A stretch of 10,630 nt of DNA from a virus, in UHGV virus genome UHGV-0281862. One strand, written 5' to 3'. The position numbers and the translations under genes were made by a program. The notes under the pieces were generated by a model, which saw nothing but the letters and a program-made list of their open reading frames with translations, did no database searches and had not been told where the DNA came from. Positions 4,962 to 10,269 of the stretch are shown one piece after another. Positions within the stretch are counted from its first letter, which is position 1. Every line of letters starts with the position of its first letter.

Positions 4962-5141
4962 GTACCCAGAATCCTGTGAGCTATACGGAAAGTACACAGA
5001 AAGGAAGGTGCGACCACAATTAATAACAAAATCTTAAAAATTGCACATGGCACTATTAGTTTACTAAATATTGTGTATTTTTTGTATTGCAGGATGACCC
5101 TGTAACGAAGTTTGCGTAACAGCATTTTGCTCTACGAGTTT

Positions 5142-5170
5142 GCCAGCCTCCCCCAGTGGCTGGCTTTTTT
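5142..5170 (+). terminator. intrinsic terminator
   Basis: GCCAGCC-tcccccagt-GGCTGGC hairpin followed by TTTTTT. Confidence 0.5.
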
Positions 5171-5172
5171 AT

Positions 5173-5292
5173 GTCTGTAGCGTCAAAGCAGCAATGTCGC
5201 TGGGGCGTCGTGCAATTGGCGTTGAGCTGGAGACTGAACGTTTTGAGCAGACGGTCAGGGAAGTTCAGGATTTAGTCAGTCAGAACGGATGA
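5173..5292 (+). pseudogene. possible C-terminal remnant of a DNA methyltransferase (no start codon or N-terminus)
   Basis: Open frame translating ...VCSVKAAMSLGRRAIGVELETERFEQTVREVQDLVSQNG*, resembling the C-terminal AdoMet-binding region of beta-class methyltransferases (...A..LGRR.IGIE...). It begins right after a terminator with no upstream coding sequence. Low certainty. Confidence 0.3.
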
Positions 5293-5332: not shown

Positions 5333-5408
5333 GGCCCTTTAGCTCAGTGGTGAGAGCGAGCGACTCATAATCGCCAGGTCGCTGGTTCAAATCCAGCAAG
5401 GGCCACCA
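5333..5408 (+). tRNA. ileZ: tRNA-Ile2-like, anticodon CAU (Met cannot be excluded from the anticodon alone)
   Basis: 76 nt with a manually folded cloverleaf: acceptor GGCCCTT/AAGGGCC, D-arm GCTC-AGTGGTGA-GAGC, anticodon loop CTCATAA (CAT), T-arm GCTGG-TTCAAAT-CCAGC, 3' ACCA. Closely resembles E. coli ileX-type tRNA. Confidence 0.8.
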
Positions 5409-5417
5409 TATCACATA

Positions 5418-5494
5418 CCGCCATTAGCTCATCGGGATAGAGCGTCAGCCTTCGAAGCTGGCTGTGCGGGGTTCAAGTCCCCGATGGCGGTCCA
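5418..5494 (+). tRNA. argN: tRNA-Arg, anticodon UCG
   Basis: 77 nt: acceptor CCGCCAT/ATGGCGG, D-arm GCTC-ATCGGGATA-GAGC, anticodon loop CTTCGAA (TCG), T-arm CGGGG-TTCAAGT-CCCCG, discriminator T, CCA. The gene symbol follows the ileZ-argN-argO trio of lambdoid/Stx phages; which Arg gene is argN and which is argO is uncertain. Confidence 0.8.
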
Positions 5495-5507
5495 TTATCA
5501 GCATCAT

Positions 5508-5584
5508 GCGTTGTTAGCTCAGCCGGACAGAGCAATTGCCTTCTAAGCAATCGGTCACTGGTTCGAATCCAGTACAACGCGCCA
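5508..5584 (+). tRNA. argO: tRNA-Arg, anticodon UCU
   Basis: 77 nt: acceptor GCGTTGT/ACAACGC, D-arm GCTC-AGCCGGACA-GAGC, anticodon loop CTTCTAA (TCT), T-arm ACTGG-TTCGAAT-CCAGT, discriminator G, CCA. Confidence 0.8.
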
Positions 5585-5629: not shown

Positions 5630-5844
5630 CTCACAATTCAGGCGGTTGACTGTTGTCTGGTTTGCGGGGAGTTTGTTAAAAGAAACTGGCATGGTGAATC
5701 CCCCTGTGCGGAGGGGCAATCAGCGAGTAGGTATATGGGATAATCGCGGATTCAGGTGCTGGTACTGAATTCACCGGGAGGCACCCGGCACCATGCAATG
5801 GCACATAGCGCCACTCTCCAGCCCCTCTCCGGAGGGGCTTTTCT
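5630..5844 (+). ncRNA. candidate structured noncoding RNA module A (promoter-like box to intrinsic terminator)
   Basis: Begins CTCACAATTCAG-N4-TTGAC. Contains a conserved hairpin GCATGGTGAATCCCCCTGTGCGGAGGGGC, the conserved block CACCGGGAGGCACCCGGCACCATG, and ends in terminator GCCCCTC-TCCG-GAGGGGC-TTTTCT (5821-5844). All blocks recur in module B at 6098-6328 with divergent spacers. No conserved ORF. Confidence 0.35.
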
Positions 5845-6032
5845 GTGCCGGATACATCACAGTTTCTGGAACCTTAGGTACTACAGTATCAGTCAGGGTG
5901 CTATATTTTCAGATGTGATGAAAGCCTGTCAGCAGGCAGGGCGTATCGGAAATGACCCAGTAGAGAAAACGTTGACTCAGATACCGGTGCTGAGTTACCG
6001 GGAAACCGGCATCACATGACCGCTATCCTTCC

Positions 6033-6097: not shown

Positions 6098-6328
6098 CTC
6101 ACAATTCAGTAAGTTGACAGTTGCCTGTCAGACTGGGCATTTGTTAAAAAAATTTCGCATGGTGAATCCCCCTGAGCGGAGGGGCGACTGGTGACGGTAT
6201 AATCTCTGATTATCAAAACGAGAATGACGCGGGTTTAGTGGCACCGGGCTGAACTCACCGGGAGGCACCCGGCACCATGTGCATGATGATACAGATACGC
6301 GGCTTTAGCCCCTCTCCGGAGGGGTTTT
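6098..6328 (+). ncRNA. candidate structured noncoding RNA module B (paralogous to module A)
   Basis: Begins CTCACAATTCAG-N4-TTGACA. Shares TTTGTTAAAA, GCATGGTGAATCCCCCTGAGCGGAGGGGC and CACCGGGAGGCACCCGGCACCATG with module A; contains a perfect TATAAT at 6198-6203; ends in terminator CCCCTC-TCCG-GAGGGG-TTTTCTT (6309-6328). Small ORFs inside differ between copies, so protein coding is unlikely. Confidence 0.35.
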
Positions 6329-6559
6329 CTTGTGGGCAAAAAAAGCCCGCGCTGGGAGACGCGGGCGGCAAGGAATAAACAATAAAACGTGAAGTAATAT
6401 TTCAGCTGGCGAATAATACCCCATAGTAATCACTCTGCGCAACTGCGCGGTCTTTTTCGAATTGCGGGCTGTCGTCTCTCTTCTGCCATTGTCCTGTAAC
6501 TTCCGGACTTCAGCCCGCTCCTTATTTTACTCACAATATTATCCCGGCCGGGAGGATTC

Positions 6560-6787: not shown

Positions 6788-6991
6788 AAGACAGTCTGGC
6801 AGTGGGACTAAATGCACTGACGCTGATGGATATTACCAAAAATGTAACGTATGGCGTTGAGATAGAAAGTCTGGCGCTGGAGATAAATGCACCGGCATCA
6901 TCATAAAAAGTGAGCCAGTCAAATGGAAGGTATCGTTAAACTCACCGGTAGTGTCAGTGGGTCGTCTGAGACGCTTGCATGAGTTATCAGA

Positions 6992-7020
6992 GCCATCAGT
7001 AGTTAACTGGTGGCTTTTTT
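6992..7020 (+). terminator. intrinsic terminator immediately upstream of the holin gene
   Basis: GCCATCAG-tagttaa-CTGGTGGC hairpin (one G-U pair) followed by TTTTTT. It lies inside the longest version of the holin ORF, which argues for the downstream start at 7056. Confidence 0.5.
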
Positions 7021-7055: not shown

Positions 7056-7271
7056 ATGGACCAGATGGAAAAAATCACAACAGGTGTGTCATACACCACG
7101 TCAGCGGTGGGAACGGGCTACTGGTTCCTGCAGTTGCTGGACAGGGTTTCCCCGTCTCAGTGGGCGGCAATAGGCGTGCTGGGGAGTCTGCTGTTTGGGC
7201 TGCTGACATATCTGACTAACCTGTATTTCAAAATCAGAGAGGACCGTCGTAAGGCGGCACGGGGAGAGTAA
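7056..7271 (+). CDS. S21-type pinholin (class II holin) with dual-start motif
   Basis: 71 aa: [71 protein letters not shown], very similar to the phage 21 S pinholin (two transmembrane domains, C-terminus ...[20 protein letters not shown]). Met1/Met4 give the antiholin/holin dual start; RBS GGGAGACGGGG upstream. Confidence 0.85.
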
Positions 7272-7275
7272 TTCA

Positions 7276-7620
7276 ATGACTCAAAACTATGAACTGATTG
7301 TGAAAGGGATCCGCAATTTTGAGAATAAAGTTACGGTAACTTTAGCATTACAGGACAAAGAACGCTTTGACGGTGAAATTTTTGACCTGGACATCTCGCT
7401 GGACCGTGTTGAAGGTGCTGCGCTGGAGTTTTATGAGGCAGCGGCCAGAAGGAGCATCAGACAGGTCTTCCTGGATGTCGCTGCCGGGTTATGTGAAGGG
7501 GATGAGCAGTCGCCGGAAAAGCGCCCCGTAATTTTAGAGGCGCAGAATGTATGGATAACCTACAAAGGAAAGCTACCGGGAAGGATTACTGGTTCCCTGA
7601 AGACTCCGCCGAAATGGTAG
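7276..7620 (+). CDS. hypothetical protein inserted between holin and endolysin (possibly the YdfR-like protein found at this position in K-12 Qin)
   Basis: 114-aa ORF starting 5 nt after the holin stop, with GGAGAG 7 nt upstream. No catalytic motif recognised. Its 3' end overlaps a convergent minus-strand ORF by 35 nt. Confidence 0.5.
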   Translation: MTQNYELIVKGIRNFENKVTVTLALQDKERFDGEIFDLDISLDRVEGAALEFYEAAARRSIRQVFLDVAAGLCEGDEQSPEKRPVILEAQNVWITYKGKLPGRITGSLKTPPKW

Positions 7621-7858
7621 TTTTGCCAGCATAATTTTCTTCCAGCAATGCCGCCAGCCACTTGAAAGAATTTTGTTGTTCCTGGGACCATTTGGGGTTG
7701 CGTGATTCAAAATGAATGGATGCCAGCGTTGGCAGCATTTGCTCCCTGGGAATTGATAAGGCCAGATGTGAAAATGCAACAGTGAGGGCATTTACATCAT
7801 CCCGAAGCCTGGAAATGCAGTCGAGCAACTCCTGTAGAGAAATGGTGCTATTGTCCAT
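7586..7858 (-). CDS. hypothetical small protein encoded antisense inside the lysis cassette
   Basis: 90-aa minus-strand ORF with a strong RBS (AAGAGGA, 5 nt spacer) before its ATG at 7858. Lies between the holin-proximal gene and the endolysin. No recognisable domain; predicted mostly helical. Confidence 0.3.
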   Translation of the reverse strand: MDNSTISLQELLDCISRLRDDVNALTVAFSHLALSIPREQMLPTLASIHFESRNPKWSQEQQNSFKWLAALLEENYAGKTTISAESSGNQ

Positions 7859-7963
7859 AAATAATCCTCTTGATTGTCTTTACCTTTTCCCCGCCTGATT
7901 CAACAGGCCGGGACAGATAAACATATCCAGGGTTCAGAAACCGATAAATCCTGATAAATATCC

Positions 7964-8497
7964 ATGAACGCAAAAATCAAATACGGCCTGTCAGCTGCAG
8001 TTCTGGCGCTGATTGGAGCAGGCGCATCAGCTCCTCAGATACTTGACCAGTTTCTGGATGAAAAAGAGGGTAACCACACTACGGCATACCGCGATGGTTC
8101 CGGCAACTGGACCATCTGTCGGGGGGCCACGATGGTGGATGGAAAACCCGTTTTTCCCGGTATGAAACTGTCGAAGGAAAAATGCGACCAGGTCAACGCC
8201 ATTGAGCGTGATAAGGCGCTGGCATGGGTGGAGAAAAACATCAAAGTGCCATTGAGCGAACCCCAGAAAGCGGGGATCGCGTCATTCTGTCCGTACAACA
8301 TTGGTCCCGGTAAGTGTTTCCCGTCGACGTTTTATAAACGAATTAATGCAGGTGATCGCAGGGGAGCGTGTGAGGCGATTCGCTGGTGGATTAAGGACGG
8401 TGGCAGAGACTGCCGTATTCGTTCAAACAACTGCTACGGTCAGGTATCCCGTCGTGACCAGGAGAGCGCGCTGGCGTGCTGGGGTATCGACAGATAA
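7964..8497 (+). CDS. SAR endolysin (phage 21 R-type lysozyme, GH24 family)
   Basis: 177 aa. N-terminal weakly hydrophobic Gly/Ala-rich segment (YGLSAAVLALIGAGASA) typical of a signal-anchor-release domain, followed by the lysozyme catalytic triad spacing E-x8-D-x5-T (EGNHTTAYRDGSGNWT). Pairs with the pinholin. Confidence 0.85.
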   Translation: MNAKIKYGLSAAVLALIGAGASAPQILDQFLDEKEGNHTTAYRDGSGNWTICRGATMVDGKPVFPGMKLSKEKCDQVNAIERDKALAWVEKNIKVPLSEPQKAGIASFCPYNIGPGKCFPSTFYKRINAGDRRGACEAIRWWIKDGGRDCRIRSNNCYGQVSRRDQESALACWGIDR

Positions 8498-8587
8498 GCA
8501 GAATATTTTGCTGAAAAATAAGGCATGGCCACGCGGGCGGATAACATGAAATCCTGCGAAGTGGCGAAACGTAAGTGAATAAAAGTA

Positions 8588-8620
8588 AAAACCCCGTTTG
8601 TTGGCACCAAGCGGGGTTTT
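8588..8620 (+). terminator. terminator-like hairpin between the endolysin and spanin genes
   Basis: AAAACCCCG-tttgTTGGcaCCAAg-CGGGGTTTT: a perfect 9-bp outer stem with an inner 4-bp stem, followed by T residues. The flanking A-run and T-run could allow function in either direction. Confidence 0.35.
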
Positions 8621-8656
8621 GTGTTTCCTGACTCCGGAAAAGTCAAAGGAGAAAGT

Positions 8657-8794
8657 GTGTTTGATTTTAGCAAACTGATTCGGGAGATTCGAGTGATGGC
8701 TGAAAAATTATCCACCTGGAAGTTCATTCTTATCTGGCTGGTGTTTGTGATTATGGCCTCTGGTTATTTCATCGGTCAGATACGCTGGTGGTGA
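8657..8794 (+). CDS. candidate 45-aa single-pass membrane protein, translationally coupled to Rz
   Basis: GTG 8657 preceded by AAAGGAG with a 5-nt spacer (alternative in-frame ATG at 8696). Translation [45 protein letters not shown] has a hydrophobic core. Stop TGA 8792-8794 sits 1 nt before the Rz ATG. Below the 60-aa cutoff of the ORF track. Confidence 0.3.
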
Positions 8795-8795
8795 A

Positions 8796-9260
8796 ATGAA
8801 CCGCGTACTGTGCGTGGTCATCATTGCCCTGCTGGTGGCCTGTGGTGCGCTTAGTCTGGGGCTGAATCATTACCGTGATAACGCCATTACCTACAAAGCC
8901 CAGCGCGACAAAAATGTCAGAGAACTGAAGCTGGCGAACGCGGCAATTACTGACATGCAGATGCGTCAGCGTGATGTTGCTGCGCTCGATGCAAAATACA
9001 CGAAGGAGTTAGCTGATGCGAAAGCTGAAAATGATGCTCTGCGTGATGATGTTGCCGCTGGTCGTCGTCGGTTGCACATCAAAGCAGTCTGTCAGTCAGT
9101 GCGTGAAGCCACCACCGCCTCCGGCGTGGATAATGCAGCCTCCCCCCGACTGGCAGACACCGCTGAACGGGATTATTTCACCCTCAGAGCGCGACTGATA
9201 ATAATGCAAAAACAACTTGAAGGGGCACAGCTATACATTCGAGAGCAATGCCTCAGATAA
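8796..9260 (+). CDS. Rz: Rz inner-membrane spanin subunit (lambda-type)
   Basis: 154 aa with an N-terminal transmembrane segment. The sequence from [17 protein letters not shown]... through ...MQKQLEG matches my recollection of lambda Rz nearly residue for residue. Confidence 0.9.
9016..9198 (+). CDS. Rz1: Rz1 outer-membrane lipoprotein spanin subunit, embedded in Rz in the +1 frame
   Basis: 60 aa, [60 protein letters not shown]: lipobox VVGC, proline-rich mature part, essentially lambda Rz1. RBS AAGGAG upstream of ATG 9016. Confidence 0.85.
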
Positions 9261-9567: not shown

Positions 9568-9978
9568 TTAGTGCGGAAATATTTGTGTAGTGTTCTGAAT
9601 GTTCTCAGTAAAGAGTAATGAATTATCAAAGGTATAGTAATACCTTTTGTTTTCGTGGATATTTGTAATCCATCTGAAAACCCCTGCTGTAGCAAGATTT
9701 TTCCTGTATTCGTAAAATGATAACTCTCCTGATTTGAATCCTTTTAAGGTGGCTTCTATAAGGCATTTATTTTTTGAAAATCTTACATTTACAACCTTAC
9801 CCTGTCCTTTTATTAAAACCGTATTATCGTTTTCAAGAACAAGATGAATATTCTCTGTGGCTAAATAGTAAATGTAATGTGAGACATTGTGACGTTTTAG
9901 TTCAGAATAAAACCAGTGATAGTTTAAATTATTTCGCACTTTATCGAATATTTGTTTAAAAATGGCAATCTGAGCCAT
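9568..9978 (-). CDS. DUF1398-like prophage protein (YdfO/YbcV-like), in an AT-rich segment
   Basis: Minus-strand ORF; start preferred at the Met (MAQIAIF...) preceded by GGAAGG, giving 136 aa. The position after Rz on the opposite strand parallels ybcV of DLP12 and ydfO of Qin. Local GC content is clearly lower than the flanks. Family call is from recalled similarity. Confidence 0.55.
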
Positions 9979-10035
9979 TGTAGTACCTTCCATGTGATAT
10001 GAGGGGGCGTAGTCTGCACGATTATCTAAATTGCT

Positions 10036-10269
10036 TCAATCTGGTCTGACCTGTTTTCTGAGCAATTCAGTAATGTCACTCTTTTCTTTGTTTGCTTCAG
10101 GCGAAACTCTTTTTTCTGAGCACAGTCTCCGGCGGCAGGCTTCAATGACCCAGGCTGAGAAATTCCCGGACCCTTTTTGAACAAGAGCGATGTTAATTTG
10201 TTCAATCATTTGGTTAGGAAAGCGGATGTTGCGGGTTGTTGTTCTGCGGGTTCTGTTCTTCGTTGACAT
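10036..10269 (-). CDS. YlcI/YnfO-family small protein (DUF3950-like)
   Basis: 77-aa minus-strand ORF, MSTKNRTRRTTTRNIRFPNQMIEQINIALVQKGSGNFSAWVIEACRRRL..., with a basic N-terminus. Lies next to the DUF1398-like gene, as ynfO-ydfO do in Qin. Confidence 0.6.
   Translation of the reverse strand: MSTKNRTRRTTTRNIRFPNQMIEQINIALVQKGSGNFSAWVIEACRRRLCSEKRVSPEANKEKSDITELLRKQVRPD

Follow-up and report, generated by a model that had tools for sequence, protein, structure and literature searches.

A conserved antisense gene in a variable slot of an S21-type lysis cassette, probably carried as moron-type cargo

Why would a lambdoid prophage carry an open reading frame (ORF) that runs backwards through its lysis cassette? 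The question is raised by UHGV virus genome UHGV-0281862, of which a stretch of 10,630 nucleotides (the window) was analyzed. The window represents the late region of a lambdoid E. coli prophage, and the ORF at issue, here called p90, encodes 90 amino acids (aa) on the minus strand at 7586-7858, between a plus-strand gene of the DUF1327/YdfR family (114 aa, 7276-7620) and the lysozyme gene R (7964-8497), which encodes the endolysin. Comparison of many copies shows that p90 is a genuine protein-coding gene under purifying selection, and the most probable reading of its position is that it is moron-type cargo, acquired independently on a cassette of about 300 bp. A preliminary description of the same DNA had placed the minus-strand ORF correctly and had coupled the plus-strand gene to the holin gene, which agrees with a DUF1327 start 4 nt past the holin stop. 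The 35-nt tail-to-tail overlap that it reported was also recovered, at 7586-7620, where both strands are coding: one for the p90 C-terminus, the other for the DUF1327 end ...TGSLKTPPKW and its stop.

The pattern of substitution is that of a translated frame. In all, 84 copies of p90 were compared, drawn from viral contigs, E. coli genomes, deposited phages and one Escherichia ruysiae genome; they reduce to 27 different sequences, with nucleotide identity as low as 85%. Eighty-one are fully intact, two lack only the last codon, one has a nonsense codon, and indels are absent (0/84). The preliminary description had proposed that broken minus-strand frames at homologous loci would speak against a gene and that conservation under purifying selection would speak for one, and the copies follow the latter pattern. 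Over the 237 nt that lie outside the DUF1327 overlap, the third codon position has 35 variable sites, against 14 at the first and 12 at the second (chi-square p = 3.4e-4). The ratio of nonsynonymous to synonymous substitution rates (dN/dS, Nei-Gojobori) is 0.27 in the p90 frame and 1.15-1.43 in four other frames; for comparison, it is 0.10 for the holin and 0.39 for DUF1327, and a value for the lysozyme was discarded because insertion columns had put its alignment out of frame. The ATG, the stop, the 90-aa length and the GAGGA core of the Shine-Dalgarno sequence are kept in all lineages. In the window this strong Shine-Dalgarno sequence reads AAGAGGA (7871-7865, minus strand), as first described, but it stands 6 nt (TTATTT) rather than 5 nt ahead of the ATG.

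Could the minus-strand ORF nonetheless be no gene, only a chance ORF or a shadow of plus-strand constraint? One plus-strand frame is as low as p90 itself, with a dN/dS of 0.23, and is the sole other low frame; its value is low because it shares its third positions with the minus frame. This shadow frame has an ATG in the window's own clade only, and its stops differ in place between lineages, whereas the minus frame retains ATG, Shine-Dalgarno sequence and stop. Stop avoidance in p90 by itself lacks significance (2 stop-creating states observed versus 3.1 expected), a point for the non-gene reading, and it was not used as coding evidence. The strongest coding evidence is the protein family: homologs with 26-35% identity occur in unrelated genomic contexts. 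Taken together, codon-position bias, dN/dS, conserved signals and the protein family support a real gene under purifying selection, and the non-gene reading is already largely refuted, with almost no probability left to it. The p90 protein matches phrog_2411 over its full length (positions 1-90/90, E = 5.5e-55) and is identical to a protein of E. coli UTI89 that the Prokaryotic Genome Annotation Pipeline (PGAP) already annotates as WP_001351274.1, "hypothetical protein." Hidden Markov model (HMM) searches had been suggested for both overlapping products; the plus-strand product fell into PF07041, and the minus-strand product had no Pfam model.

Family members in other genomes bear on what p90 might do. 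An exhaustive HMM search and a profile search detected homologs of 81-106 aa in Serratia, Sodalis, Chania, Gibbsiella, Chimaeribacter and Acerihabitans, all in the 26-35% identity range, and a Citrobacter homolog is 55% identical. The family motif is ELLDxIxxLRxxVNxLxxAFxYLAFS...TIxALxFES. In Serratia the homolog has a fixed chromosomal place, rne...pyrC-dinI-[X]-bssS-solA, in three contexts (S. marcescens, S. rubidaea and a third contig), downstream of the dinI terminator and with a conserved promoter-like element of its own (TTGGAA/CTGGAA, 18 nt, TGTAAT/TGTATT). Inspection by eye revealed no LexA box upstream of p90, nor upstream of its Serratia ortholog. The Sodalis homolog is isolated in the chromosome, an E. 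coli island has a homolog beside an AIDA autotransporter, and another chromosomal homolog sits among the small stress-protein genes DUF892 and DUF1883. To judge from these chromosomal contexts, the p90 protein is evidently able to work without any phage partner, which argues for a host-directed rather than a lysis function.

In prophages, p90-family genes always run opposite to the late genes, whether in E. coli, in Citrobacter or in phages of the type represented by loci L178 and L275. Their position varies: in E. coli they stand between DUF1327 and R, in Citrobacter directly upstream of the holin, and in the L178/L275 phage past an Rz-like gene, ahead of terminase. A scan of viral sequences with an alignment that included distant members returned only E. 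coli loci with the arrangement of the window (type A, see below); a scan of genomes gave a single locus, and metagenome scanning yielded no further one. In BL21 (L182), the complete S-YdfR-p90-R module has survived, with p90 intact, between sieB and trkG within what is left of a decayed Rac. E. coli B strains carry an essD-YdfR-p90-rrrQ-Rz module in Rac, between sieB/ydaF and trkG.

The protein itself (10.1 kDa) is acidic (isoelectric point 4.95) and soluble, with no transmembrane segment. An AlphaFold2 model has three helices with a confidence (pLDDT) of 79.6; residues 81-90, encoded in the overlap, fall below 50 and are predicted to form a disordered C-terminus. The best reading of these predictions is a small, acidic, cytoplasmic helical protein. 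The label "DUF1823" found in phage PhiR5_1 was rejected as a sub-threshold match (E = 0.11).

The place that p90 occupies is a polymorphic slot. A census of 166 loci, each covering the interval between the starts of the DUF1327 and lysozyme genes, resolved discrete types that differ in the length of DUF1327 and in the gene, if any, on the minus strand. Type A, that of the window, combines a DUF1327 of 114 aa with p90. Minus-strand genes are absent from type B (DUF1327 of 116 aa, as in L092), type C (104 aa, K-12-like) and type D' (268 aa, L113). Type D has the 268-aa DUF1327 together with p104, an unrelated gene of 104 aa (Stx2 phage 86); type E has a 183-aa DUF1327 with p88, also unrelated, of 88 aa (L097); and type F has a 211-aa DUF1327 with p86, the 86-aa form of p88 (PhiR5_1). 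The N-terminal 75 residues of DUF1327 are strongly conserved between loci, and all forms have "...GRITGSLK(T/M)PP" in common and diverge after it.

Alignment of type A with types B, D and D' and with L140 delimits the variable cassette at 7612-7919, with BLAST breaks at 7611 and 7920. The left junction falls at 7611/7612, which leaves the last two codons of DUF1327 (KW) and its stop past the mosaic junction; the right junction falls at about 7918-7920 ("AACATATCCAGG") and is followed by a 26-nt leader, ccgataaatcctgataaatatcc, ahead of R. Cargo-free variants differ from type A by exactly the segment from 7612 to about 7919. The alignments thus describe a cassette of some 300 bp in a recombination hotspot that extends from the conserved "...ITGSLKTPP" end of DUF1327 to the invariant endolysin leader. 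The contrast in guanine-plus-cytosine content is modest, at 45.5% for the cassette, 48.8% for DUF1327, 53.2% for R and 54.2% for the holin. The preliminary description had stated that S and R are adjacent in phage 21, and in K-12 DLP12 essD and rrrD are direct neighbors; in K-12 Qin, ydfR stands between essQ and rrrQ, and its stop overlaps the start of rrrQ. Because S and R are adjacent in DLP12 and Qin has S-ydfR-R without an extra gene, p90 is an insertion.

An antisense gene in this slot is not exceptional for the phage group, contrary to the initial impression that such a gene inside a lysis cassette is unusual. Among complete E. coli genomes, p90 is present in 1139/5426 (21%), and the two other, unrelated antisense genes of the slot are present in 314/5426 (p88) and 90/5426 (p104); every one of these genes is annotated "hypothetical." The similar look of p88 and p104 ("LxxLxxLRxxVxAL") raised the idea that they are remote p90 homologs, which neither BLASTP nor hhalign supported. 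A hairpin, CGCCAG(C/T)G-GTAGGA-CACTGGCG, with a T-run lies upstream of p104 in a type D locus (L099) and upstream of the Citrobacter p90 homolog (L169, 4928-4955), in each case on the own strand of the antisense gene. The two genes are unrelated and come from different genera, and the shared hairpin may be a portable insulator or terminator of the cassette border.

The term moron, in the usage of Hendrix and co-workers, denotes an extra gene unit in the late region of a phage. The arrangement of p90 corresponds to this usage, since it lies between genes that are adjacent in related phages, as seen when type A is set against type B and L140, type D against D', and the window against DLP12 and Qin. 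By its geometry p90 faces Q-dependent late transcription, as had been pointed out earlier, and it has a strong ribosome-binding site of its own. If p90 is cargo of this kind, it would be transcribed in the lysogen from its own putative promoter, and its protein may bind a partner in the host cytoplasm and take no part in lysis. A candidate weak promoter was picked out by eye on the minus strand, with a -35 element TTATCG (7947-7942), a 16-nt spacer and a -10 element TATGTT (7925-7920), matching the consensus at 7/12 positions. It lies in a segment common to other cargo types that overlaps the leader of R, and its conservation is ambiguous because the same segment is that leader.

Several observations weigh against this interpretation. 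Two sigma-70 consensus scans of the minus strand within 300 nt returned no p90 promoter, and a search for a hairpin with a U-run from the p90 stop to the holin start returned no terminator, although both are classic features of a moron. Since no terminator follows p90, its transcript probably continues antisense into the DUF1327 and holin (S) genes. Only three deposited phage genomes contain p90, and defective prophages may therefore account for most copies. RNA sequencing of LF82 prophages (PMC9928086) gives no account of the slot, which is unannotated in its tables; in the prophage Perceval of that strain (CU651637 1192010-1192379; PMC9928086) a 370-nt unannotated gap with type A spacing separates DUF1327 from the endolysin gene, and p90 was probably missed in the annotation and hence in the RNA sequencing tables. 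Searches of Pfam, NCBIfam, PADLOC, PDB sequences and folds yielded no functional clue for p90, the literature yielded nothing under its protein identifiers, and no paper was found on antisense genes in lysis cassettes. Finally, p90 homologs in other prophages are consistently overlapped by a late-strand ORF related to the DUF1327 tail, which hints at a functional link with the late gene that purely independent cargo would not lead one to expect.

This partner ORF bears on an alternative. In Citrobacter, a late-strand ORF of 63 aa (p63), MTLEQRVEILERTISGLKKST...NEKITGSLRAPIKL followed by its stop, overlaps the p90 homolog tail-to-tail, and in the L178/L275 phage a homologous ORF of 62 aa does likewise; the two late-strand ORFs are related along their full length (E = 4e-7). 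The p63 coil is homologous to the extension of the long DUF1327 forms (E = 3e-8), and its end resembles the end of the window DUF1327 (RITGSLKTPPKW and stop), over 11 residues only (E = 0.006). The partner family comprises 11 clusters from sources that include Salmonella and Citrobacter. Wherever a retrieved locus extends far enough, a p90-family gene, whole or as a remnant, converges on the partner; in Salmonella the p90 homolog is recognizable only in its C-terminal ~25 residues, while its partner has remained intact. A simple reading is that DUF1327, a p63-type ORF and antisense p90 may once have been neighbors and that type A would have arisen by recombination between two ITGSL-coding segments. 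In two further loci (L271, 2501-2984; L272, 2501-2837), ORFs that begin MTLEQRVE... directly follow a lambda gpI-like tail gene and are overlapped tail-to-tail by a small antisense ORF. These antisense ORFs were considered as relatives of p90 or p88 and set aside, as the similarity lacks significance.

A functional coupling of p90 to the late-strand gene that it overlaps, be it DUF1327/YdfR or the 62- to 63-aa "MTLEQRVE...ITGSLxxP" ORF, is unlikely, though it would be the more interesting possibility. In its RNA version, transcription of p90 in the lysogen would lay antisense RNA over DUF1327 and the holin gene and silence leaky late expression, and after induction the Q-modified polymerase would overrun the p90 promoter. 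In its protein version, p90 would bind and antagonize a YdfR-type RNase E-binding protein; K-12 YdfR binds RNase E's catalytic domain via residues 1-72 and co-purifies with RNA (PMC13232886). Every assessable p62/63 locus, in four lineages and at three positions around the cassette, has the convergent overlap with a p90-family gene or its remnant, the coil homology and the similar tail tie the partner to DUF1327, and the missing minus-strand terminator would allow the antisense transcript. On the other hand, adjacency may reflect mere common descent of one mobile module, and the match to the window DUF1327 tail is very short. Partner and p90 are also not interdependent: p90-family genes stand alone at the Serratia, Sodalis, E. 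coli island and other chromosomal sites, DUF1327 often occurs without p90 (types B, C and D', and K-12), and the Salmonella partner has outlived its p90 homolog. A bolder extension, in which the DUF1327-R junction and the lysis-cassette borders are docking sites for small antisense genes and p90 with its overlapped ORF forms a conserved convergent two-gene switch, is distinctly improbable. Under such a switch, p90 would be made in the lysogen, where read-through silences stray holin and YdfR, and late transcription would shut p90 off on induction; the p90 protein might in addition counteract the YdfR-type protein that binds RNase E.

Two other functions can be weighed against moron-type cargo that acts on the host. 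That p90 is an anti-phage or superinfection-exclusion factor made in the lysogen is quite improbable. Where it lies and which way it points are typical of cargo expressed in the lysogen, other minus-strand cargo (DUF1398, ynfO) lies nearby, and the rapid replacement by unrelated small genes in the slot recalls defence hotspots. A defence function had been suggested earlier, but in PADLOC-DB no family at E <= 1 was found for p90, DUF1327, p88, p104 or the Serratia homolog. Moreover, p90 is one small protein, soluble and helical, that lacks any enzymatic or membrane domain, and the fixed core place of the Serratia orthologs by dinI and bssS is atypical of defence islands. Still less credible is a toxin-antitoxin-like module in which either DUF1327 or p90 is toxic and the other neutralizes it. 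The genes are small, adjacent and overlapping, and other toxin-antitoxin genes (hokD, HicAB) are found near in this prophage group; yet convergent order is atypical of type II systems, each gene is widespread without the other (DUF1327 in types B, C and D' and in Qin, p90 homologs in Serratia, in Sodalis and at other sites), and overexpression of K-12 YdfR has little effect on growth or transcriptome (PMC13232886). Cargo with a role in the host cytoplasm is the reading that we favor.

The genes around p90 are those of a familiar lysis cassette. The 1.1 kb from 7000 to 8100 matches E. coli UTI89, ATCC 11775, APEC O1, S88 and many more strains at 100% identity. At 7056-7271 (plus strand) lies an S21-type class II holin gene of the pinholin family, whose 71-aa product matches PF04971 Phage_holin_2_1 (E = 9e-33, 112.5 bits against a cut-off of 26) as well as the phrog_9876/phrog_20 holin families, and carries the PGAP name "class II holin family protein." Its N-terminus, MDQM..., provides a Met1/Met4 dual start. 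The DUF1327 product matches PF07041 over residues 1-112 (E = 6.9e-44, 148.4 bits against a cut-off of 25) and phrog_406 over its full length; PGAP names it "YdfR family protein," and the initial assignment of this plus-strand gene as YdfR-like was sound. It is a late gene of the usual YdfR/DUF1327 kind and, as in K-12 Qin, shares a transcript with the holin gene.

Lysozyme R (177 aa, plus strand) matches PF00959 (E = 4e-24, 85.7 bits) and the phrog_7 endolysin family, has the catalytic motif E-8-D-5-T, and is named rrrQ lysozyme by PGAP. Its N-terminus, MNAKIKYGLSAAVLALIGAGASAP, is weakly hydrophobic, rich in Gly, Ala and Ser, and resembles a signal-anchor-release (SAR) segment. As the preliminary description had remarked, R has no obvious ribosome-binding site: no purine-rich Shine-Dalgarno sequence occurs within 25 nt upstream of its ATG, and its leader (7938-7963) is AU-rich. 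The further suggestion that endolysin translation depends on the inserted context found no support. The 26-nt leader is the same in all types, with or without cargo, and translation of the endolysin is therefore independent of the insertion. Farther downstream, Rz with an embedded Rz1 occupies 8796-9260.

Other features of the window lie outside the slot. A terminator-like hairpin with a T-run on the plus strand (6989-7017), ~40 nt upstream of the holin start, stands where a late terminator overridden by Q antitermination would be expected. The interval from the Q region to the holin gene contains three tRNA genes and then two copies of the STnc100 small RNA family (161 and 136 bits), at 5333-5581, 5660-5850 and 6128-6337; in the annotation of the related UTI89 prophage the tRNAs are Ile, Arg and Arg. 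At 5140-5292 a 50-aa ORF with the end ...GRRAIGVELETERFEQ... resembles a C-terminal fragment of a DNA methyltransferase, and UTI89 has a full 1050-nt methyltransferase gene ahead of its tRNAs. The 300-nt gap between lysozyme and Rz (8498-8795) contains a symmetric hairpin (8588-8620) that is terminator-like both ways, with an A-run before and a T-run after it, and a 57-aa plus-strand ORF (8621-8794) with a hydrophobic C-terminal half, which is without annotation in UTI89. This gap may be a second cargo slot in the lysis cassette; in Stx2 phage 86, ant lies at the R-Rz junction. Past Rz, the minus strand carries two more antisense cargo genes at 9568-9993 and 10036-10269, a DUF1398 gene (31.5% GC, ydfO/ybcV-like) and a ynfO-like gene, in an arrangement also seen in K-12 Qin and DLP12.

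What follows from these findings depends on which reading is correct. If p90 is cargo only, the analysis tidies the annotation of a real and widespread small gene, which is present in BL21, E. coli C, UTI89 and ST131 among its many hosts, has no Pfam family and no literature that could be found, and has relatives among the core chromosomal genes of Serratia, beside dinI and bssS. It also defines a precise insertion hotspot in the S21-type lysis cassette at which three unrelated antisense genes alternate. If instead the overlap with YdfR-type genes were functional, the recently reported RNase E binding by YdfR would be tied to a prophage antagonist or to antisense control of lysis genes, and a convergent switch would subject lysis-gene expression in lambdoid prophages to a further level of control not described before.

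Known systems help to place p90. K-12 Qin (essQ-ydfR-rrrQ) has the same S21-type holin, DUF1327 and lysozyme genes in the same order; in the window the C-terminal end of DUF1327 differs, and 343 nt with p90 separate DUF1327 from R. Against phrog_2411 and WP_001351274.1, p90 shows no difference and is a full-length member of the family. Both p88 (phrog_2572) and p104 (phrog_1853, Stx2-86 gp06) resemble p90 in slot, antisense orientation, size (86-104 aa) and Shine-Dalgarno context (AGAGGATTA for p104), but they lack sequence or profile similarity to it and accompany long DUF1327 forms of 183-268 aa. The established lambdoid late-region morons are lambda bor and its DLP12 counterpart borD, on the minus strand after Rz, and ant of Stx2 phage 86, between R and Rz. 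Like these, p90 is a small extra gene between late genes that are otherwise adjacent and is variable among collinear phages, and like bor it is antisense. Unlike bor, which follows Rz, it sits within the lysis cassette, with the YdfR gene on one side and R on the other, and its product is predicted to be a soluble cytoplasmic protein instead of a lipoprotein.

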